NCBI RefSeq assembly: GCF_004376175.1
Contig: NZ_SNUY01000011.1
Location: 20,341-52,340, forward strand
Source of the DNA: Halalkalibacterium halodurans
Lineage (GTDB): Bacteria > Bacillota > Bacilli > Bacillales > Bacillaceae_D
Direction of reading: 5' to 3'
Length of the DNA: 32,000 nucleotides
The translations under genes were made by a program, and so were the position numbers. The notes below the pieces were generated by a model. It had not been told where the DNA came from, did not search any database, and saw nothing but the letters and a program-made list of their open reading frames with translations. This document shows, one piece after another, positions 8,114 to 18,335 of this stretch; positions within the stretch are counted from its first letter, which is position 1; each line of letters starts with the position of its first letter.

Positions 8114-8865
8114 ACATTCAACAAGTGACAAAGCAATATGGAGAAAAATTAGTGATAGACGATGTGTCTGTTTGCATCCCTCAAGGAAAAATTACGTCCT
8201 TCATCGGACCGAATGGGGCAGGCAAAAGTACGTTGCTTTCCATGGTTAGTCGCTTGTTAAAAAAGGATGCAGGTCAGATTCTAATCGACCAGCATGAAGT
8301 AACCCAGTACGATAGCCGAGAGTTGGCGAAAATGCTATCCATTTTAAAACAGGCCAATATTATTAACATTCGTTTAACTGTGAAGGATCTCGTTTCGTTT
8401 GGGCGTTTCCCGTATTCTCAAGGGGCCTTAATGAAAGAAGACCATCGTCTAATTGATGAAGCGATCCGTTACATGGACCTTACTGACTTAGAAGATCGCT
8501 ATTTAGATCAGCTCAGTGGTGGACAAAAGCAACGGGCGTTTATCGCGATGGTGATTGCCCAAGATACGGACTATGTCCTTTTGGATGAACCATTAAACAA
8601 CCTTGATATGAAGCACTCCGTTCAAATTATGAAAGTGCTCAGACAAATGGTCGAGGAATTAGGGAAAACAGTCGTTATTGTTTTACATGACATTAACTTT
8701 GCTTCCTGTTATTCAGATTATATTGTCGCATTGAAAAATGGAAAAGTTGTGCGACAAGGTCCAAAAAACGAGATTATTGACCGTGAAGCTCTTCGGGACA
8801 TTTACGATATGGACATGGAGGTTAATTGTATTAACGATCAAAAAATTTGCGTGTACTTCACGTAA
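8107..8865 (+). CDS. yclP: Iron-siderophore ABC transporter ATP-binding protein (YclP-like)
   Basis: Walker A GPNGAGKST, ABC signature LSGGQKQR, Walker B VLLDEP and an H-loop HD. Overlaps the permease stop. Confidence 0.9.
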   Translation: MVDIQQVTKQYGEKLVIDDVSVCIPQGKITSFIGPNGAGKSTLLSMVSRLLKKDAGQILIDQHEVTQYDSRELAKMLSILKQANIINIRLTVKDLVSFGRFPYSQGALMKEDHRLIDEAIRYMDLTDLEDRYLDQLSGGQKQRAFIAMVIAQDTDYVLLDEPLNNLDMKHSVQIMKVLRQMVEELGKTVVIVLHDINFASCYSDYIVALKNGKVVRQGPKNEIIDREALRDIYDMDMEVNCINDQKICVYFT

Positions 8866-8896
8866 AAATATAGACATAAAAAAGGAGTTGGGGAAC

Positions 8897-9886
8897 GTGA
8901 GAAAAAAACCGTTCTATATGGCAATTGTAGTAGGGATCGTGTCACTATTAATGGTAGCATGCGGAGCTGATGATACCGCAGAGCCAGCTGATGCTGAGCA
9001 AGAGGAAGCCGCTCAAGACACAGTAGAAGAGGAAATGGTAGAAACAGAAGCAGGCGGTGAGGTAACCGTTCAACATGACCTTGGGGAGGCAGTCATACCA
9101 AAAAATCCTGAAACCGTTGTTGTGTTTGACTTTGGGACATTAGATTCTCTTGACCGTTTAGGTGTCGAAGTAGCGGGAGTCCCACAAGCCAACGTGCCAG
9201 CATACTTATCTCAGTATGAAGAGGAAACGTATGCCAACGTAGGGACGCTATTTGAACCAGATTTTGAAACGATCTATGATCTTCAACCTGATTTAATTAT
9301 CATTTCTGGGCGGACATCAGAAGCGTACGACGAGTTAAGTGACATTGCCCCAACTTTATTCGTTGGCCTTGACACAGAAAACTATCTTGAATCATTCCGT
9401 TCCAACATGGAAACCTTAGGTGAAATCTTCGGTAAAGAAACTGAAGTGGAAGAAGCGTTGGCGAGTCTAGAGGCTAATATTGAGGAAGTACAGCAATTAG
9501 CAGCAGAGAAAGAAGAAACAGGGTTAATTGTGCTAGCGAATGATGGGAACGTGAGCGCTTACGGTCCAGGTTCACGCTTTGGTGTCATCCATGATGAGTT
9601 TGGTGTGACCCCAGTAGATGAAAACATTGAAGTGTCCAACCATGGACAAAGCATCTCCTTTGAGTATATTGTAGAGAAAAACCCAGATCATCTATTCGTG
9701 ATCGATCGTGGAGCTGTCGTACAAGAAGGAGAAGAGACCAATATTGAAAATGAACTAGTCCAGCAAACAACGGCATATGAAGAAGGAAATATTCATTATT
9801 TAACCCCTGACTACTGGTATATTTCGGGCGGCGGACTCGTATCCGTTGAACAGATGATTGACGAAATGAAAGCCGCTTTACAGTAA
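8897..9886 (+). CDS. yclQ: Siderophore-binding lipoprotein (YclQ-like, petrobactin/catecholate-type SBP)
   Basis: GTG 8897 lies 9 nt after AAAGGAG. Signal peptide with lipobox LMVAC-G. From VTVQHDLGE..IPKNPE.VVVFDFG.LDSLD onward the protein is colinear with remembered B. subtilis YclQ. The mature N-terminus carries a very acidic linker. Confidence 0.8.
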   Translation: MRKKPFYMAIVVGIVSLLMVACGADDTAEPADAEQEEAAQDTVEEEMVETEAGGEVTVQHDLGEAVIPKNPETVVVFDFGTLDSLDRLGVEVAGVPQANVPAYLSQYEEETYANVGTLFEPDFETIYDLQPDLIIISGRTSEAYDELSDIAPTLFVGLDTENYLESFRSNMETLGEIFGKETEVEEALASLEANIEEVQQLAAEKEETGLIVLANDGNVSAYGPGSRFGVIHDEFGVTPVDENIEVSNHGQSISFEYIVEKNPDHLFVIDRGAVVQEGEETNIENELVQQTTAYEEGNIHYLTPDYWYISGGGLVSVEQMIDEMKAALQ

Positions 9887-9901
9887 ACTAAAGAAATCGA
9901 A

Positions 9902-9932
9902 AGGTGCACGGCGATTCCGTGCGCCTTTTTTC
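9902..9932 (+). terminator. Rho-independent terminator after the ABC operon
   Basis: GGTGCACGG-CGATT-CCGTGCGCC followed by TTTTTT. Confidence 0.75.
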
Positions 9933-10044
9933 AATTGATAAGGCTTCTATAAAAGGTGGGGAATTCGAAATTAGGGTGAATCAACAACCTTTTACGTGCA
10001 TAGATTGAATTAATCGCTCTTGACCACGGATGGAGGTTGACCTG

Positions 10045-11940
10045 ATGGATATTTTAAAAAAAGTCGAACAGTACAGAGAAGAGGAAGAACGACTTAAGTG
10101 GGAAGGGACGTTTGCGGATTATTTGGCTCTGTTAAAGGAGAAACCATGGGTTGCACAAACGGCGCATGCCCGCGTGTATAACATGATTAAAGATGCTGGT
10201 TTCGAGGAGAAAGATGGTCGAAAAACATATAGCTTTTTTAGCGATCAAATTTTTGGCTTAGAAGATTCGATTGAGAAATTAGTAGAAGAATATTTTCATT
10301 CAGCGGCTAAACGGTTGGATGTACGTAAACGGATATTACTGTTAATGGGTCCAGTCAGTGGGGGGAAATCGACGATTGTGACAATGCTCAAGCGAGGCCT
10401 GGAAAACTATTCTCGAACCGAACGGGGAGCGGTGTATGCGATTAAAGGCTGCCCGATGCATGAGGACCCTCTCCATTTAATTCCTCAGCATTTACGCCGT
10501 GATTTCTATGAAGAATACGGAATACGTATTGAAGGGAATTTATCACCGTTGAACATGATGCGTCTGCAAGAAGAGTATGGTGGACGAATTGAAGATGTGA
10601 TCGTGGAGCGGATCTTTTTCTCGGAGGATAAGCGCTGCGGGATCGGTACGTTCAGTCCGTCTGATCCGAAATCTCAAGACATTGCTGACTTAACGGGTAG
10701 CATTGACTTTTCAACGATTGCCGAATATGGCTCAGAATCGGATCCGCGAGCATATCGATTTGACGGAGAGTTAAATAAAGCCAATCGTGGCTTAATGGAA
10801 TTTCAGGAGATGTTAAAGTGCGATGAGAAATTTCTCTGGCATCTACTTTCCCTTACGCAGGAGGGGAATTTTAAAGCGGGAAGGTTTGCACTCATTAGCG
10901 CGGATGAAATGATCGTCGCCCACACGAATGAATCGGAATACCGTTCGTTTATTGCCAACAAAAAGAATGAGGCGCTCCATTCGCGGATCATCGTCATGAA
11001 AATTCCGTACAATTTGCGCGTGTCAGAAGAAGAACGAATTTACGAGAAAATGATTGAGGATAGCGATCTGTCTAATGTTCATATTGCGCCTCATGCGTTA
11101 AAAGTGGCGGCAATTTTTACGATTTTAACGAGACTGAAGGAGCCGAAGAAGCAAGGCGTTGATCTTCTAAAGAAAATGCGACTGTACGACGGGGAAGCGG
11201 TTGAAGGCTACAATGTGCAAGATGTGGAGGAGTTACGCAAAGAATATGAAGATGAAGGCATGAGCGGCATTGACCCCCGTTATGTGATCAACCGAATTTC
11301 ATCTGCGATTATTCGTAAGCAGCTAACGTCAATTAGCGCGCTCGATGTTCTACGTTCGATCAAGGAAGGGTTAGATCAGCACGCATCGATCTCAAAAGAA
11401 GACAAAGAACGCTACATGGACTTTATCGCCATCGCGCGGCGCGAGTATGATGACATTGCGAAGAAAGAAGTACAAAAAGCGTTTGTTTATTCGTATGAAG
11501 AATCAGCGAAAACGTTAATGGATAACTATCTCGATAATGTGGAGGCATACTGCAATAAATCAAAGCTCCGCGATCCACTTACAGGAGAGGAAATGCAGCC
11601 TGATGAAAAATTAATGCGCTCCATTGAGGAGCAGATCGGTATTTCCGAAAATGCGAAAAAAGCCTTTCGTGAAGAAATTCTTATTCGAATTTCGGCATAT
11701 GCCCGAAAAGGGAAGAAATTTGATTACAATTCACATGAACGGCTTCGTGAAGCCATCCAGAAAAAATTATTTGCTGACTTGAAAGATATTGTTAAGATTA
11801 CAACGTCCGCAAAAACACCAGATGAGTCACAGCTAAAGAAAATCAATGAAGTCATTGCTCGTTTAATCGATGAACATGGGTACAATTCTGTGTCTGCTAA
11901 TGAGTTGCTTCGCTATGTCGGCAGCCTGCTCAACCGTTAA
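10045..11940 (+). CDS. prkA: PrkA AAA-type serine protein kinase/protease (sporulation-associated)
   Basis: MDILKKVEQYREEEERLKWEGTFADYL matches the remembered PrkA N-terminus. Walker A GPVSGGKS. ATG 10045 lies 6 nt after GGAGGT; the track start at 10030 is probably too far upstream. Confidence 0.92.
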   Translation: MDILKKVEQYREEEERLKWEGTFADYLALLKEKPWVAQTAHARVYNMIKDAGFEEKDGRKTYSFFSDQIFGLEDSIEKLVEEYFHSAAKRLDVRKRILLLMGPVSGGKSTIVTMLKRGLENYSRTERGAVYAIKGCPMHEDPLHLIPQHLRRDFYEEYGIRIEGNLSPLNMMRLQEEYGGRIEDVIVERIFFSEDKRCGIGTFSPSDPKSQDIADLTGSIDFSTIAEYGSESDPRAYRFDGELNKANRGLMEFQEMLKCDEKFLWHLLSLTQEGNFKAGRFALISADEMIVAHTNESEYRSFIANKKNEALHSRIIVMKIPYNLRVSEEERIYEKMIEDSDLSNVHIAPHALKVAAIFTILTRLKEPKKQGVDLLKKMRLYDGEAVEGYNVQDVEELRKEYEDEGMSGIDPRYVINRISSAIIRKQLTSISALDVLRSIKEGLDQHASISKEDKERYMDFIAIARREYDDIAKKEVQKAFVYSYEESAKTLMDNYLDNVEAYCNKSKLRDPLTGEEMQPDEKLMRSIEEQIGISENAKKAFREEILIRISAYARKGKKFDYNSHERLREAIQKKLFADLKDIVKITTSAKTPDESQLKKINEVIARLIDEHGYNSVSANELLRYVGSLLNR

Positions 11941-11948
11941 AATTTCTT

Positions 11949-11976
11949 AGGTCCCTCAAATAGGGGCCTCTTTTTG
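11949..11976 (+). terminator. Terminator after prkA
   Basis: GGTCCCT-CAAAT-AGGGGCC followed by a T-run. Confidence 0.6.
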
Positions 11977-12123
11977 TTTGTTAAAAAGCAAACATGTTAG
12001 GTTCCATAAGCACGACGTTACCAGTGAAGGTTCACTTATCCGACAAAAGGACTTAATTAAGAGATTCAGAAAAAAGAAGATTGTGTCTTCACCCTAAGAG
12101 TGGTAAATTAAAGGAAAAGACAT

Positions 12124-12672
12124 GTGGAGGCACTGCTTGTGGATACAAAGAAAAGTGATATAAATGAATGGATAAAAGCCATCTTGATTGCTTTGCTACT
12201 TGCGGTTTTGATTCGTTCATTTGTGTTTGTAAGCTATGAGGTACGTGGGGAATCGATGGAACCAACAGCCTATGAAGGCGAAATGTTTATAGTGAATAAA
12301 CTTAGCTATGAGTTTTCTGAACCGAAACGGTTTGATTTAATTGTCTTTCATGCAACGGAAACAGATGATTACATAAAGCGGATCATTGGTTTACCAGGGG
12401 ACACAATTCGAATGGAAGATGACATTCTCTACATTAATGATGAGCCTTACGAGGAACCATACTTAGACGAATGGAAAGAAGGACGACCTGGAAAATACAC
12501 GCAAGATTTTGTTGTGGAAGAACCCATTCCAGATGGATATGTGTTTGTTCTCGGGGATAATCGTCCAAGAAGCTCAGACAGTCGCGCCTTTGGCCCTGTC
12601 CCGTTAGAAGAAATCGTCGGGAAAGTAGGAGTGCGTTTCTGGCCTGTGACAAAAGTAGGCGTTTTAAATTAG
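12124..12672 (+). CDS. Signal peptidase I (S26 family)
   Basis: N-terminal TM helix, catalytic Ser box GESMEPT, Lys box YIKRIIGLPGD and GDNRPRSSDSR. The start is uncertain: GTG 12124 or in-frame GTG 12139. Confidence 0.88.
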   Translation: MEALLVDTKKSDINEWIKAILIALLLAVLIRSFVFVSYEVRGESMEPTAYEGEMFIVNKLSYEFSEPKRFDLIVFHATETDDYIKRIIGLPGDTIRMEDDILYINDEPYEEPYLDEWKEGRPGKYTQDFVVEEPIPDGYVFVLGDNRPRSSDSRAFGPVPLEEIVGKVGVRFWPVTKVGVLN

Positions 12673-12683
12673 TACGACACGCG

Positions 12684-12712
12684 AAACCTTCAGCGACTGC
12701 TGGAGGTTTTTT
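12684..12712 (+). terminator. Terminator after signal peptidase gene
   Basis: AACCTTCAGC-GACT-GCTGGAGGTT followed by TTTT. Confidence 0.7.
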
Positions 12713-12778
12713 ATACTCTAAGAAAGGGATATAAATCACGACTAGAGCAAGCGAAAACTAGTGTTACAAAAGTGGCGG

Positions 12779-13015
12779 CCAATATTATATTTTGGCAAAA
12801 CGGTTCGTGCCGATGGTGGTACCATTAAGCTTCATGAGGTAGCTATGCTAGCAGCTTTACCGAAAGGATCGGAAATCTATTCCCTTAAAAATATGGAGGC
12901 GGCCATAGAGCGGTAGCCATTCGTTTTAAGTCGAATGAAGGAATATGGCAGAAATAGAGGAGCAAGAGGCGATCTCTAATGATGTGAACGCCAATCATAA
13001 CAGGGGACAGAAATA
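12779..13015 (+). pseudogene. Relic of a class A PBP / GT51 transglycosylase gene
   Basis: The translation ILYFGKTVRADGGTIKLHEVAMLAALPKGSEIYSLKNMEAAIER-stop-PFVLSRMKEYG, then after a frameshift AEIEEQEAISN, resembles the end of the PBP1A glycosyltransferase domain (YFG...L.L.E.A.LA.LPK......N.E.A..RR..VL..M...G.ITEE). It has no start, an in-frame TAG at 12914-12916 and a frameshift near 12945. Confidence 0.45.
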
Positions 13016-13218
13016 ACGTTTAAAATGTTGCGACCGCCTGTTGACGTGTATGTCGAAAGTGAGCGAGGGTACCTAGTTTACATTTGGCCCTTTTGAATCG
13101 ATTTAATCATATTCCACTATTGGATAGGGATTTCAATCATGGGAGAGAGGCAACTTCCTAAAGAAGCAATGAGTAAAAAAAGCTAGTGAATTGGCAAATT
13201 GGCATGGACGTGTGTGTA

Positions 13219-13251
13219 GAAAGCCTTGACAAAATCAAGGCCTTCTTTTTT
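13219..13251 (+). terminator. Orphan rho-independent terminator
   Basis: GCCTTGA-CAAAA-TCAAGGC with extra flanking pairs, then TTTTTT. It lies downstream of the PBP relic and upstream of yhbH. Confidence 0.5.
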
Positions 13252-13453
13252 AAAAAAAAGAATAACACTGCTGCTACGGGATTTGTCAGAATTTATAAGC
13301 AACTCTTCCCTTTCTTTGCATAGGATAAAGTAAGTCACGTTCCGAAAAACGATGAGCGTGACCCACATTAGCATATGACGGTGAATCAGATTTGGTGATT
13401 TGTCCACAAAATAAAATGTCAATACCATCAAAATTGAAGGAGGGGTTGGACGC

Positions 13454-14626
13454 GTGAAGAAAGGGAGTCGACATAATTTCGTGGTTTCACAGGAAAATTG
13501 GACCCTCCATCGAAAAGGTTATCAAGACCAACGCCGCCATCAGGAGAAAGTAAAGGAAGCGATACGGAAAAATCTACCCGACCTTGTGAGCGAAGAAAAC
13601 ATCATCATGTCAAATGGGCGCGAAGTCATTAAAATCCCGATCCGCTCATTGGATGAATATAAAATTCGCTACAATTATGATAAGAATAAGCACGTCGGTC
13701 AAGGGGATGGAGACAGCCAAGTCGGGGACGTGATTGCCCGTGATCCAAGTGCTGGACAGCAAGGACCGGGCAAAGGCCAAGGAGCAGGTGATCAGCCTGG
13801 AGAAGACTATTTTGAAGCAGAAGTGTCGATTCTAGAATTGGAGGAATTGTTGTTTCGCGAGCTGGAGCTGCCGAACTTGCAGCAAAAAGAAGAGGATCAT
13901 CTCGTCGTCGAACATATCGAGTTCAACGATATTCGCAAAAAAGGCTTGATGGGCAATATCGATAAACGGCGAACGATTCTATCTGCAATCAAGCGAAATG
14001 CATTAGAGGGAAGACCTGGACTTATACCAATTTACAATGATGACCTAAGATTTAAAACATGGAACGAAGTGGTCCGCCCAGAGTCAAAGGCCGTTGTCCT
14101 CGCGATGATGGATACATCAGGGAGCATGGGGCGTTGGGAAAAATATATGGCTCGCAGTTTCTTTTTTTGGATGACGCGCTTTTTGCGTACGAAATATGAA
14201 ACGGTAGACATTGAATTCATCGCCCACCATACTGAAGCAAAAGTCGTATCGGAAGAAGACTTTTTCTCAAAAGGGGAGAGCGGTGGGACGATTTGTTCAT
14301 CCGCTTATCGGAAAGCACTCGAGCTCATCAATGAAAAATATGATCCTGCTCGCTACAACATTTATCCGTTCCACTTCTCAGATGGTGACAATTTAACGTC
14401 TGACAACGCTCGCTGCCTTAAGCTTGTGCATGAGCTAATGGAATCGTCCAGCATGTTTGGCTACGGTGAAGTCAATCAGTACAGTTCCTCAAGGTATAAA
14501 CGTTCATCTTTAATGAGTACATTTAGTCAAATCACTAACGTGCGGTTTAGAAACTTTATATTAACAAAGAAGGAAGATATATTTCATGCCCTTATATATT
14601 TTTTTAAATGGAAAGTGGACAATTAG
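13454..14626 (+). CDS. yhbH: YhbH (DUF444, PrkA-partner sporulation protein) with chimeric, phage-derived 3' end
   Basis: GTG start after GAAGGAGG. Colinear with remembered B. subtilis YhbH ([87 protein letters not shown]). The last ~45 codons remain homologous (S.LMS....I....FR..IL..K.D.FHA....FF) but become abruptly AT-rich. Confidence 0.9.
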
Positions 14627-14691
14627 CATGGTGAGTCCGTAATGTCTAATGAAGGCATTTATTTGGTTAGATCAGTAAGAAACTGTCAACA

Positions 14692-14706
14692 ATACTTATT
14701 AAGTAT
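14692..14706. promoter_or_regulatory. Perfect 7-1-7 palindrome upstream of the cargo cassette (candidate operator)
   Basis: ATACTTA-T-TAAGTAT is flanked by an imperfect outer inverted repeat TGTCAACAA ... TTGTTATTGACA. It lies 42 nt upstream of the first cassette gene. No convincing -35/-10 assignment. Confidence 0.3.
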
Positions 14707-14747
14707 CATAGGTTGTTATTGACAATCATCAGTTAGGAGGTGAAAAT

Positions 14748-15044
14748 ATGAGTAAGGGGGGGAAAAATGTGGCGACTCAAATTTATGATAATAAAGAATT
14801 ATTAGTTAAATTAGTGTCCACGGGGATTTTAATGACTGCTGCTAAAGAAAAGGTAGATAACTACTTAAAACAACATAGTATTGTAATTCAGGAAATGATG
14901 GAAGATGAAGAATCGATGGAGTATTTTAATATGTACTATGAGGAGAATGAAGAAGAATTAAAAAATGCAGCAGAACATTCTGTAACAACCTCAGCAGAAG
15001 TAGAGAAAGTCTTGGAAAAGTGGAGAAAAGAGTATGAGTTTTAG
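14748..15044 (+). CDS. Small acidic protein, candidate antitoxin/neutraliser (cassette gene A)
   Basis: 98 aa with RBS TAGGAGGTG 6 nt upstream. The C-terminal half is strongly acidic (MMEDEESMEYFNMYYEENEEELK). The ORF overlaps the MazF-like gene by 11 nt. No RHH/AbrB motif recognised. Confidence 0.6.
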   Translation: MSKGGKNVATQIYDNKELLVKLVSTGILMTAAKEKVDNYLKQHSIVIQEMMEDEESMEYFNMYYEENEEELKNAAEHSVTTSAEVEKVLEKWRKEYEF

Positions 15045-15564
15045 AGGGAAAATTAAAAGGGGAGAAATATATGTTGCTGACTTAGAGCCCACTCTTGGAT
15101 CTGAACAAGGTAAAGAGAGAAGGGTTCTTATTGTTTCTAATGATATCGGAAATTCGAACCCTAAGTCACCTGTAGTGATCGCTTTACCTATAACAGGTGA
15201 AGTTACGCCAAAGAAACTAAAAATGCCTATGTATGTTCAAATTAGACCAAGTAAACTAAATGGTCAAACTAAGATGGCTTTAATCGATTGTGGACAAATA
15301 AGAGTATTGGATATAGATAAGAGGCTTAAGGAATTAAAAGGAGAAGTAGAAAAGGAAGTTTTAGAAGCTGTTGATGCAGCTTTAGAAACAGTCTTACAGA
15401 TTAAGACATGCCCGGCATGTTCAAAAGTATTACTGCCGAATCGAAATCATTGTGTGAGTTGTAAATACATATTGGTAAGAGTTTGTATAAACTGTAATAG
15501 TAAAATAAATAGCCAATACATATTTTGCCCTCATTGCGGGCAAAAAAGGGAGGGAGATACATGA
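15034..15564 (+). CDS. MazF/PemK-family endoribonuclease fused to a C-terminal double zinc ribbon (cassette gene B)
   Basis: Residues 1-125 align with remembered B. subtilis EndoA/MazF (KRGEIYVADLEPTLGSEQGKERRVLIVSNDIGN vs [33 protein letters not shown]; also QIR.LD..RL and V..AL). Residues 126-168 hold four CxxC pairs: CPAC, CVSC, CINC, CPHC. Confidence 0.85.
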   Translation: MSFRGKIKRGEIYVADLEPTLGSEQGKERRVLIVSNDIGNSNPKSPVVIALPITGEVTPKKLKMPMYVQIRPSKLNGQTKMALIDCGQIRVLDIDKRLKELKGEVEKEVLEAVDAALETVLQIKTCPACSKVLLPNRNHCVSCKYILVRVCINCNSKINSQYIFCPHCGQKREGDT

Positions 15565-16073
15565 GAGAGTATCATAAAAGCAAGTTATTGACGAAGCTAG
15601 CAGAACTACTACCTCCCTTTGCTAATTCTTTAATGCAACTTGTAGCTTATATTAATAGTGATAAGGAACTATCCATTACCAAGGAACTATTAAATAGCTT
15701 AACAACCGTAACTCGCGAGGCGGAACAAATTAGGTTGGCTTTAAATAATCAGGCAAAAGAATACGCTAGAATGCTCGAAAATACATCAAGAAAACTTACT
15801 GATAATGAAGTCAATCATATAAAAGAATTTATCGAAATACACCAAAAGTTAATGGCTGCTCATAAAGAAGTCTTACAAGGGATCAATATGCTTATATATC
15901 TTCTAGTCGAAGAAGTAGTTGCGCACAATGACCCAGAACAAACAGGGAAAAAGATGATGGATGAAATTTTAAAGAGTATAGAAGGACCACCTAGTGTTGA
16001 GGAAGCCATAAATAATTTATATTATGGTGCTAAAAAAATCACTGAAGGAATTGATAATATTATAGAAAAATAA
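15561..16073 (+). CDS. All-helical protein of unknown family (cassette gene C)
   Basis: ATG 15561 overlaps the gene B stop as ATGA and is preceded by AAAAGGGAGGGAG. 170 aa, no motif recognised. The track start at 15525 lies inside gene B and is less likely. Confidence 0.65.
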   Translation: MREYHKSKLLTKLAELLPPFANSLMQLVAYINSDKELSITKELLNSLTTVTREAEQIRLALNNQAKEYARMLENTSRKLTDNEVNHIKEFIEIHQKLMAAHKEVLQGINMLIYLLVEEVVAHNDPEQTGKKMMDEILKSIEGPPSVEEAINNLYYGAKKITEGIDNIIEK

Positions 16074-16077
16074 TTAG

Positions 16078-16113
16078 ACAACACCTGCACTTTGTTTAAG
16101 CAGGTGTTGTTTA
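16078..16113 (+). terminator. Terminator closing the cargo cassette
   Basis: ACAACACCTGC (16078-16088) pairs perfectly with GCAGGTGTTGT (16100-16110), followed by TT. Confidence 0.7.
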
Positions 16114-16148
16114 AAATTGTATTAGGGTTTGCCATTTAATTTAGGGCA

Positions 16149-17681
16149 TTAAATTTTAAGATAAATTTTTATTTCAAAATGATCAGGTTCTACCCAATCT
16201 TTTTTGCGAGTGTACTCAATTTTTTCAATTATGCTTTTTAATAGTTTATTCTCTTCAAAAGCATTATCCGTTTCATAAAATGCCTTTAATGCATTTCTGG
16301 CTTTAGGCAAAAACTGATCATAATGTTTTTCTTTCTCTTGTTCAATATCAATCTCTTTTTTGAGTTGTGCAATTTTCTCTTGGGCGTTTTTGATCCGCTC
16401 AGTGATAGCTTGCTGGCGTTCCATGAAAACATCAATTGTGTAAATTCCTTGCTCCAAAAGGTCATGAAGATTATCTTTTTGAGTTTGAGCTTTCTTTAAC
16501 ACAGTTTGCTGTTCTTTAAGGGCGCGCTCTTTTTCAGGTATAAGAGAAACTTTCTTCCGTTCTAGTAGCTCACCTTCAAACTCTATCGATTCTAATATAT
16601 CCGATAGAGATTCTATTACTTTGTCCATAACTAAGTGTAATCCAGCCCCCTTATGAAAAGGAGCACAAGTCCTTGTGTAACAACGAATATGATGATTAGG
16701 GCGGTCTCGATTTGGCTGGTATTTCATAACACGTCCACAAATAGAGCAACGTAGAAGCCCAGCTAATGGATTAGTGAGAGTGTTCGGCTCAACCATTGGG
16801 GGACGCCAACGAGAGGAATGGGCTTCATTAGCGCGGTCAAAGAGTTCTTTACTGACAATTGGTTCATGTGCATTTTCTTTGATTATCCAATTCTCACGAG
16901 GCATCTTTTTCCTAACCCTTTTTCCATTACGTTTATATTGTTTAGTTTTTCCCCATATGATTGTACCAGTATAAACTTCGTTTTTTACTATCGCCGTAAG
17001 AGTAGAGTGTTCCCACTGGTTTGCACGCTCAGGCGGTGGGATTTTATGCTCATCCAAATAACGAGCTAAAGCATGTCGGCCATAGCCTTCCGACATTTTT
17101 TCAAATATCAATTTTACCACCCATGCTGTTTCTGGATCTGGAACTAGTTTCATTTTTTCGTTTCGCAAGTATCCATAGGGTGGTTTTTTGCCGATGAACT
17201 TTCCTTCCGAAGCACTTGCACGTCGTCCTCGCTGTAATCGTTTGTTTATGTTTTTTAATTCCTCGCGAGAAAGGATAGATTTAACACCAAATAAAAGTTC
17301 AGCTCCTTCTTCGGTAGGGTCGATTACTTCGGTTGGTGTGATAACTAAAGTTTCACTATAGGCAAATGCTCGGTATATTAATCCCATATCGAACATATCA
17401 CCGCGACCCAGCCTGTCTAGGTCCATCACCAGGACTGCATCAGCAGCACTGTTTTCTACTTCTCTTAGGAGCTCTTGAATTTTGGGACGTTCATTTATAT
17501 ATTCACCAGATACAACTTCTTCAAATGGAGGAGCAACCAAATTATGATTCTCTTTTTTTACAAGTTCCAAAAGTTGTTTACGGTGGCGTTCAAGTGTATC
17601 GTATTCTCCGTTTTGTTCCCTTTCTAAGTCCTTACGGCTTTTACGCAAATAAATGAACACATCCAATCCAGTGGGGCGCAT
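16149..17681 (-). CDS. Large serine recombinase (prophage integrase, SprA-like)
   Basis: 510 aa. N-terminal resolvase catalytic domain (VFIYLRKSRKDLEREQ.. resembles the remembered SP-beta SprA YLRRSRQDMEREK), a recombinase domain (PPYGY..., W..STL..I..NEVY.G), a zinc-ribbon region (CSICG...CYTRTC) and a C-terminal coiled coil. RBS AAAGGAGA. Confidence 0.9.
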   Translation of the reverse strand: MRPTGLDVFIYLRKSRKDLEREQNGEYDTLERHRKQLLELVKKENHNLVAPPFEEVVSGEYINERPKIQELLREVENSAADAVLVMDLDRLGRGDMFDMGLIYRAFAYSETLVITPTEVIDPTEEGAELLFGVKSILSREELKNINKRLQRGRRASASEGKFIGKKPPYGYLRNEKMKLVPDPETAWVVKLIFEKMSEGYGRHALARYLDEHKIPPPERANQWEHSTLTAIVKNEVYTGTIIWGKTKQYKRNGKRVRKKMPRENWIIKENAHEPIVSKELFDRANEAHSSRWRPPMVEPNTLTNPLAGLLRCSICGRVMKYQPNRDRPNHHIRCYTRTCAPFHKGAGLHLVMDKVIESLSDILESIEFEGELLERKKVSLIPEKERALKEQQTVLKKAQTQKDNLHDLLEQGIYTIDVFMERQQAITERIKNAQEKIAQLKKEIDIEQEKEKHYDQFLPKARNALKAFYETDNAFEENKLLKSIIEKIEYTRKKDWVEPDHFEIKIYLKI

Positions 17682-17717
17682 AGTGATTTCTCCTTTCTAA
17701 AGCAAAAACAAAAAGTT

Positions 17718-18335
17718 TCAGAGCAGCTTCCTTATATCAGCATTAATGTTATCTGCACCAACTTGATCTGCTAATTGCTGTAGAATCAGTTTCGTTGATT
17801 CATAAATATGCTCAGGTTGAAGAGATTTTCTTCTTCTTTTCATTTCAGATAATTGAATGACATTTTGGAATGCCTGACACTTCACCTGATTACGTATAGT
17901 CATGAAACGTCTGATAATATACTCTCTAGGCAGCTTAAATAATTCTTCTAAGGTGTTGATAGATTGATATTGCTTTACTGCAGGAATAAAAATATGACGA
18001 GGCATTGCAGCATATAAAGCAAGACAATTTGCTTGATTCTCTTGTAATTTTGAAAAGTCTTCAGGTAAATTTTTTTGATTCCCTGGATGAGATATAACAT
18101 GTGCAAACTCATGAAAAAATTTATACCGTTGCTCGTAAGGAGACAACCTGCTATCTATATATATTAATGCGTATTCATCATCTTCATGGATACAATGGCT
18201 TCTTTTAGGTCCGTAAATCACATCGAGATTAAACTTGTCGGATAAGTTTTCTATACTAAGGTCATCAGTGGTTAGAATCCCCTTGTCGATCATAAGTTGA
18301 GTTATCTTTGTTTCTCTCCATGTAGCAAAGCGCAT
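17718..18335 (-). CDS. ImmA/IrrE-family metallopeptidase (anti-repressor protease)
   Basis: HEFAHV zinc motif in an ImmA-type context. The preferred start is ATG at 18335 (MRFATWRE), 5 nt after AGGGGGGA. The track start at 18461 would add 42 unlikely residues. Confidence 0.8.
   Translation of the reverse strand: MRFATWRETKITQLMIDKGILTTDDLSIENLSDKFNLDVIYGPKRSHCIHEDDEYALIYIDSRLSPYEQRYKFFHEFAHVISHPGNQKNLPEDFSKLQENQANCLALYAAMPRHIFIPAVKQYQSINTLEELFKLPREYIIRRFMTIRNQVKCQAFQNVIQLSEMKRRRKSLQPEHIYESTKLILQQLADQVGADNINADIRKLL

Follow-up and report, generated by a model that had tools for sequence, protein, structure and literature searches.

In the usual description, a toxin of the MazF family is a ribonuclease (RNase) with a single domain, and a MazE-type antitoxin is the only factor that controls it. 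EndoA/MazF (NdoA) of Bacillus subtilis and MazF of Staphylococcus aureus (Protein Data Bank (PDB) entries 4MDX, 4ME7 and 4MZM) are single-domain proteins of 116-133 residues, encoded in chromosomal two-gene operons together with a MazE antitoxin that has a ribbon-helix-helix (RHH) fold in B. subtilis EndoAI. Here we describe a gene of Halalkalibacterium halodurans, located at 15034-15564 of a 32,000-nucleotide (nt) stretch (the window; assembly GCF_004376175.1, contig NZ_SNUY01000011.1, positions 20,341 to 52,340), whose product, MazF-DZR, belongs to the same fold and family with 38-42% identity and probably, to judge by its sequence, shares the same chemistry, namely sequence-specific RNA cleavage by a dimer. 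Unlike EndoA/MazF, however, MazF-DZR carries a 50-residue double zinc ribbon (DZR), has a non-MazE upstream partner and an obligatory third gene, and is located in a prophage. Both the PemK/MazF and the DZR families are known, and their conserved fusion within a three-gene operon is not a categorically new type of protein.

Zinc-binding domains have been associated with toxins of other families. RAZR (PD-T7-4) combines a Cys4 zinc ribbon with an RNase, which is activated by direct binding of phage protein rings and causes abortive infection (PMC13017515). For a tail of the sensor type it offers the closest functional parallel, although by analogy only, since there is no homology: RAZR is a single-gene system with a HEPN/DUF4145 RNase and a single N-terminal ribbon, an architecture that MazF-DZR does not have. 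CapRel SJ46 is reportedly a prophage-encoded fused toxin-antitoxin whose C-terminal zinc-finger-like domain autoinhibits the enzyme and senses a capsid protein, but it is a toxSAS tRNA pyrophosphokinase with a pseudo-zinc finger and lacks separate partner genes. In the type II system MqsR/MqsA, a Cys4 zinc-binding domain is said to mediate the toxin-antitoxin contact; there, in contrast to MazF-DZR, the zinc domain resides on the antitoxin and the toxin is RelE-like. Toxin-antitoxin-chaperone (TAC) systems resemble the cassette described here in having three co-transcribed genes, the third of which encodes a protein that controls the toxin-antitoxin pair. Nevertheless, that third component is a SecB-like chaperone, while the third protein of the H. 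halodurans cassette is predicted to be all-helical and matches neither SecB nor any other family; therefore, the cassette is not a TAC system. The tail itself is most comparable in its four-knuckle layout and spacing to HVO_2753-type and other archaeal ribosome-bound Zn-ribbons, but these are free-standing archaeal proteins of ~60 amino acids (aa).

A MazF core with a zinc-ribbon tail

The gene and its two domains have the following positions in the window:

15034-15564, forward strand: MazF-DZR, presumed toxin/effector, 176 aa, basic with an isoelectric point (pI) of 9.15; ATG at 15034, stop codon ending at 15564
15055-15396, forward strand: PemK/MazF endoribonuclease domain (Pfam PF02452), residues 8-121
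15409-15540, forward strand: double zinc ribbon (DZR, PF12773), residues 126-169, with CxxC knuckles C126/129, C140/143, C151/154 and C165/168

A first-pass annotation had interpreted this open reading frame (ORF) as a complete MazF core fused in-frame to two tandem Cys4 ribbons, and Pfam, the profile comparison with 4MDX, Foldseek and the family alignments all agree with that interpretation. The Pfam PemK_toxin model matched with an E value of 7.1e-25 and 87.8 bits (cut-off 23.1) over its full length (profile positions 1-109 of 109), the DZR model matched with 30.4 bits (gathering score 27.3), and PHROG 1936 ('MazF-like growth inhibitor') matched at 2.8e-21. The translation reads CPAC-x10-CVSC-x7-CINC-x10-CPHC in the tail; the C126 codon is TGC at 15409-15411, and 15409-15564 runs from this first cysteine codon through the stop, so both the spacing and the coordinates of the tail had been given exactly. 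The core was also said to include the terminal helix that aligns with EndoA, and the family profile indeed aligned with EndoA 4MDX over residues 7-123 (E 3.9e-25).

Structure prediction, which had been proposed as a check, gave an AlphaFold2 model with a mean predicted local distance difference test score (pLDDT) of 85.9 and a predicted template-modelling (TM) score (pTM) of 0.72 that is confident through the tail, whose blocks have pLDDT values of 83-90. Foldseek comparison of the model with the PDB returned 4MZP, 4MDX and 1NE8 (S. aureus and B. subtilis MazF) at E values of ~1e-10 and target-normalised TM scores of 0.84-0.87, which together with the model identifies the core as a MazF/CcdB-type SH3-like barrel with a C-terminal helix. 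The matches were confined to MazF cores of S. aureus MazF, B. subtilis EndoA and the Mycobacterium tuberculosis MazFs, with ~118 aligned columns; none covered any of the tail, and no solved MazF structure with such a tail was found in the PDB by this search. In the profile alignment, R29 and T54 fall on EndoA R25 and T48, which are reportedly the catalytic residues (Simanshu et al. 2013), and on this basis the RNase core looks catalytically competent from its sequence. R29 and R30 are invariant in an alignment of 32 close homologues, and the position of T54 is occupied by L, M, S or K in a minority of homologues.

The tail of the window protein comprises ~50 residues and is basic (pI 9.1, net charge ~+6). 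Nearly all homologues have a tail pI of 8-9 (6.4-9.3 overall). The last MazF helix is joined to the first CxxC by a very short, conserved linker (L121-x4-C126), which, together with the pTM of 0.72, suggests that the tail is held beside the core in a defined arrangement, as far as the model can be relied on.

The distribution of the fusion was assessed by a search of 5.8 billion proteins for the close family and, for the wide family, by a profile search that covered 1.84 billion representatives exhaustively. The close family comprises ~34 clusters at 90% identity, with proteins of 171-191 aa that share 47-73% identity and the same architecture; they originate from Virgibacillus, Bacillus (B. 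tropicus, B. atrophaeus and B. inaquosorum), Priestia, Paenibacillus and metagenomes. The wide search yielded 9737 MazF relatives, and the best 150 of them included at least 15 further fusion representatives from clustering at 50% identity, each with three or four CxxC motifs and only 29-36% identical to the window protein; named members of this distant group include Clostridium estertheticum and Bacillus safensis. The fusion is thus recurrent in many genera and not confined to this genome. All eight cysteines are invariant in the 32 close homologues (47-73% identity). In a set of 17 sequences that contains 15 of the distant fusions, seven of the eight never vary, and C126 is present in at least 90% of the sequences. 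This conservation excludes a chance origin of the cysteine pattern. Tail residues other than Cys, Gly and Pro, on the other hand, are poorly conserved across the wide family. The homologues number in the dozens, are 161-209 aa long and come from many genera and independent assemblies. Each of them is encoded by one continuous ORF, which excludes a frameshift or two-ORF artefact, and the frame in the window is likewise unbroken, as the first-pass annotation had maintained.

That annotation had allowed for the fusion being an already characterised family. No description of a MazF/PemK-zinc-ribbon fusion was found in full-text literature searches, and the databases carry the generic name 'type II toxin-antitoxin system PemK/MazF family toxin' and no other. 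Among 50,697 sequenced phage records (INPHARED, tblastn) the fusion was not found; these contained plain MazF cores only, none of which covered at least 80% of the query. A pattern scan of IMG/VR viral contigs, derived from the close-family alignment, gave no confirmed relatives; BFVD contained no viral protein with the same fusion; and the JGI metagenome contigs yielded seven plain MazF genes matching residues 3-124 and no fusion. Plasmids likewise contained none: one Subdoligranulum plasmid match with 93% coverage proved to be an ordinary 119-aa MazF for which tblastn had read through the stop codon. No more than two loci were recovered in a GTDB genome scan with narrow patterns. The fusion family is therefore fairly rare and restricted to prophages.

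Other extended MazF proteins were encountered in the same searches. A second type of Cys-rich tail was observed in eight proteins of 173-220 aa (P0107, P0126, P0128, P0148, P0162, P0164, P0187 and P0188), in which LCxxC is followed after ~24 residues by CxxC and then by (R/K)(R/K)G(F/W)(D/P/A)(Y/F); in the four members scanned, Pfam detected the PemK domain only. Since this extension is different, zinc-type tails have seemingly been added to MazF more than once. In addition, P0067 (209 aa) has seven CxxC motifs, with an extra ribbon unit after the first DZR, and two tandem MazF-MazF fusions, P0066 (266 aa) and P0074 (471 aa), contain two and four PemK domains per chain, respectively.

The three-gene prophage cassette

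MazF-DZR is the middle gene of an operon whose other elements are as follows:

14748-15044, forward strand: gene A, 98 aa, acidic (pI 4.7), putative antitoxin of an orphan family
15561-16073, forward strand: gene C, 170 aa, acidic (pI 5.6), predicted all-helical, third component
16074-16114, no strand assigned: 15-bp stem-loop from RNA folding, in the gap that separates gene C from the convergently oriented integrase gene

In the window, gene A and the MazF-DZR gene overlap by 11 nt, and the MazF-DZR gene and gene C by 4 nt (ATGA). The same three-gene layout, with junctions that overlap or abut, was found in all 13 distinct loci (the window, L001, L002, L003-6, L007/8, L009, L010, L011, L013, L014, L015, L023 and L024), including the distant C. 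estertheticum locus and a B. safensis locus in an SPbeta-like region. The upstream gene encodes 83-115 aa and the downstream gene 134-190 aa in these loci. The four parts of the cassette have diverged to different extents, with mean pairwise identities among eight close loci of 62% for the MazF core, 55% for the tail, 37% for gene A and 27.5% for gene C. Their charges also differ: the core has a pI of mostly ~8-9.8 and the tail mostly 8-9, the upstream small gene is acidic (pI 4.3-4.8 in the nine scored), and gene C has a pI of 4.5-5.6. Both flanking genes are labelled 'hypothetical protein' in the databases.

Within the close group, the products of gene A share 33-45% identity with protein A of the window, and the family is detectable between the Bacillus and Clostridium groups, including the SPbeta-like loci (hhalign 91%, E 1e-6). 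It has no match to any Pfam, NCBIfam, PHROG, PADLOC or PDB family. No DNA-binding domain could be recognised in it, and none of the MazE, PemI, AbrB or RHH models matched, so that at the position of the MazE/PemI-type antitoxin of MazEF operons (AbrB or RHH domain) there is a small acidic gene that belongs to no such model. The possibility that gene A is a diverged MazE was considered, because Y63-x-E-x5-L-x4-E resembles by eye the Y-M-E-x5-L-x4-E of EndoAI; hhalign against 4ME7_E gave nothing, and the resemblance is retained as a lead. Just upstream of gene A lies a candidate operator, an imperfect 9-nt inverted repeat (TGTCAACAA at 14684-14692 and TTATTGACA at 14716-14724), whose right arm overlaps the best -35-like hexamer, TTGACA (14719). 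A promoter and operator scan found fewer promoter-like sites than in shuffled sequence.

Gene C products are only 17-28% identical to protein C of the window, and no similarity to the C proteins of the Clostridium group was detectable. No Pfam, PHROG or NCBIfam family and no PDB sequence matched at a meaningful score. The AlphaFold2 model (pLDDT 81.6) is a helical bundle of four long helices and one short helix. PADLOC reported a weak partial match to ZorA2 (E 2.7e-4, 17.9 bits) between residues 15-112 and model positions 319-415, a coiled-coil-like segment, which probably reflects the compositional likeness of long helices. The stem-loop that follows gene C has a folding energy of -21.9 kcal/mol (z -4.45), and none of 200 shuffled sequences was as stable; it is probably a bidirectional terminator that closes the cassette. 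A simple terminator scan did not call it because its T tract is weak.

The cassette lies inside a prophage, between the left attachment site (attL) and the integrase gene, with the following surroundings:

13454-14626, forward strand: yhbH, sporulation protein (Pfam DUF444), with attL inside the gene near 14485
14535-16148, no strand assigned: variable segment of 1614 bp that includes the entire cassette; at this site, a sister prophage of H. halodurans has 130 bp
16149-17681, reverse strand: prophage integrase of the large serine recombinase type (Pfam Resolvase, Recombinase and Zn_ribbon_recom), convergent with the cassette

The prophage is confirmed by the flanking genes for ImmA/IrrE, a repressor, Sak4, a DnaD-like loader, Ant and TerS, which are located downstream in the window. 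In a blastn comparison with the sister lysogen (L012), two segments of the window aligned, 8665-14534 (99.3%) and 16149-17722 (95.1%), and the interval between them had no match; in the gene map of L012, the recombinase end and the yhbH stop are 27 bp apart. The cassette is thus an accessory insertion, since the 1614-bp segment of the window corresponds to only 130 bp in L012. XhlA/holin/endolysin genes immediately precede the cassette in six further loci (L002, L003-6, L007/8, L011, L015 and L024). In L013, the cassette is ~1.5 kb past a holin and an amidase gene, and in L009 it comes after tail genes. In the circular phage genome, all these sites are the same lysis-to-integrase accessory region. 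The A/MazF-DZR/C operon therefore behaves as a conserved, uncharacterised prophage-borne accessory ('moron') cassette of temperate phages of Bacilli and Clostridia, and the lineage departs from the textbook MazF in its ribbon appendage, its unrelated partner in the antitoxin position and its obligatory third protein.

Conflict-related or accessory genes were observed near several of the loci: a convergent YolD-like gene (L003-6 and L024), LXG polymorphic toxins with immunity genes (L006 and L010) and, in L013, a 1464-aa Metallophos protein with a faint NACHT match and a metallo-beta-lactamase-fold protein with a weak Apyc1 match.

Possible roles of the tail and of proteins A and C

The reading that we prefer, and to which we assign slightly less than an even chance, is a composite one: A neutralises the RNase core, the tail docks C and/or a trigger, and infection or loss of the prophage frees the RNase. 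The MazF core would act as an RNA-cleaving toxin that dimerises as other MazF proteins do. Gene A would encode a trans-acting antitoxin whose acidic, aromatic C-terminal half blocks the RNA groove as MazE does, although the two are non-homologous, through charge complementarity with the groove. The tail would be a non-catalytic protein-interaction platform to which the fast-evolving protein C, a protein of an incoming phage, or both would bind. Release of the RNase could then be coupled either to infection, as abortive infection or superinfection exclusion, or to prophage loss, as addiction. The first-pass annotation had offered retargeting of the RNase, sensing of infection or docking of A or C as possible roles of the tail; a protein-interaction role is made somewhat more likely by the invariable A-B-C operon, in which B is the MazF-DZR gene, by its prophage accessory position and by the fast evolution of C. 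Moreover, gene C fits a specificity or sensing component, because such a component is expected to diverge fastest, as C does. The acidic A and C proteins contrast in charge with the basic toxin core and tail.

Within this framework, we consider it possible, though less likely than not, that the cassette represents a previously unrecognised three-component abortive-infection or superinfection-exclusion system of prophages, in which the tail receives a signal, A is displaced and the RNase is freed. The ribbon would either hold C or be bound directly by a protein of the invading phage. In B. subtilis, MazF acts as a defence against phages, which in turn counter it with AimX and YosL, two mimics of MazE (bioRxiv 10.1101/2023.04.27.537455). 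The three-component design might make the toxin immune to these inhibitors, and there is a link to Bacillus phages in that host MazF and phage MazE mimics already steer the choice between lysis and lysogeny. The precedents, namely B. subtilis MazF, RAZR, CapRel and MqsA, are analogies. If the tail does sense or dock a protein, MazF would join the toxins that read phage proteins directly (RAZR, CapRel), and the cassette would be a compact model in which to follow the conversion of toxin-antitoxin modules into immune sensors. A functional setting would also be provided for the orphan families A and C. The cassette is clean, conserved and experimentally tractable, and we regard it as a good candidate, though still a hypothetical one, for a new toxin-antitoxin or anti-phage module.

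Several observations weigh against the composite reading. The antitoxin role of gene A is argued only from its position, size and charge, because the protein has neither similarity to MazE/EndoAI nor a DNA-binding domain; hhalign detected no similarity between gene A and EndoAI/MazE. Gene C had no structural neighbour in the PDB below an E value of 0.1, and its matches were generic or designed helical bundles. In PADLOC-DB v2, neither A nor MazF-DZR was matched, and the weak ZorA2 hit of C was the only signal from a defence library. The association with phages is drawn from the prophage context, since the fusion is absent from the phage records, the IMG/VR scan and the plasmids; genes A and C also had zero matches in the sequenced phages of INPHARED. 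The contacts between A and the core and between C and the tail are themselves putative, and the basic tail could equally bind nucleic acid. Furthermore, a two-zinc stoichiometry of the tail does not follow from its four CxxC motifs, since HVO_2753 also has four and yet binds only one zinc (PMC11241148).

The ability of a basic domain to bind nucleic acid leads to the alternative that survives best, although we consider it unlikely: the tail would be an RNA- or ribosome-binding module that retargets MazF to rRNA, tRNA or ribosome-bound mRNA, and C would be a second regulator or antitoxin unrelated to the tail. Among the MazF toxins of M. tuberculosis, some have rRNA or tRNA as their substrate; in addition, the tail is consistently basic (net charge ~+6 in the window protein), and its nearest solved relatives include archaeal Zn-ribbons linked to translation. 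The best matches among PDB sequences were small archaeal four-CxxC proteins, some of them HVO_2753-like and others carrying the deposited title 'Zn-ribbon RNA-binding protein involved in translation'. However, this similarity is driven by the cysteines and lies below significance (E 0.015-3.7), so that it is a lead drawn from sequence rather than established homology. Plain MazF, moreover, works without an additional RNA-binding module, and the poor conservation of tail residues beyond Cys, Gly and Pro argues against a conserved RNA target.

The gene order is also that of a classic type II system, with a small acidic gene first and an overlapping toxin gene second, and the cassette may accordingly be an ordinary addiction or prophage-stabilisation module without a part in phage defence, an explanation that we judge rather improbable. 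The tail would then be structural, stabilise the dimer or bind DNA for autoregulation; zinc ribbons are able to bind DNA, a function for which no domain can be recognised in A, and the inverted repeat TGTCAACAA/TTATTGACA overlaps the -35-like TTGACA upstream of gene A. Nevertheless, the operator idea comes down to one imperfect 9-nt repeat, the strictly conserved and rapidly diverging gene C is left unexplained, and a prophage accessory site near conflict genes is more typical of defence cargo.

The very short and conserved linker places the tail directly beside the core, which the pTM of 0.72 suggests to be a defined arrangement in the predicted structure, and the zinc-finger-like domain of CapRel SJ46 reportedly autoinhibits its toxin. 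Both points would suit a tail that acts in cis as an autoinhibitory domain, hiding the active site of MazF as long as no phage protein is bound to it, with A and C as accessory or anti-anti-defence proteins. We give this arrangement a poor chance, because the simplest role for the acidic gene A, which is always present upstream, is that of a trans antitoxin. Finally, an artefact in which two adjacent genes were joined by a sequencing or assembly error is effectively refuted already by the continuous frame in the window and by the dozens of independent homologues of 161-209 aa.

The yhbH junction

The serine-integrase prophage sits inside yhbH, as indicated by C-termini that differ from those of C-125 and of other lysogens. 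The last ~46 codons of yhbH (from ~14485) are supplied by the prophage, whose surrogate 3' end keeps the ORF open. YhbH of the window diverges from the C-125 BH1031 form (P0217) after ...GEVNQYS; the protein has 388 aa in C-125 (BH1031), 390 aa in the window and 394 aa in other lysogens, and the C-termini differ again in strains that carry the same serine recombinase beside yhbH. Sister prophages share ~50 bp past the crossover point in yhbH and then diverge (14535-14626 compared with L012), which shows that the surrogate tail differs even among closely related phages. The insertion could represent either a phage that preserves its target gene or a regulated interruption of a sporulation gene.

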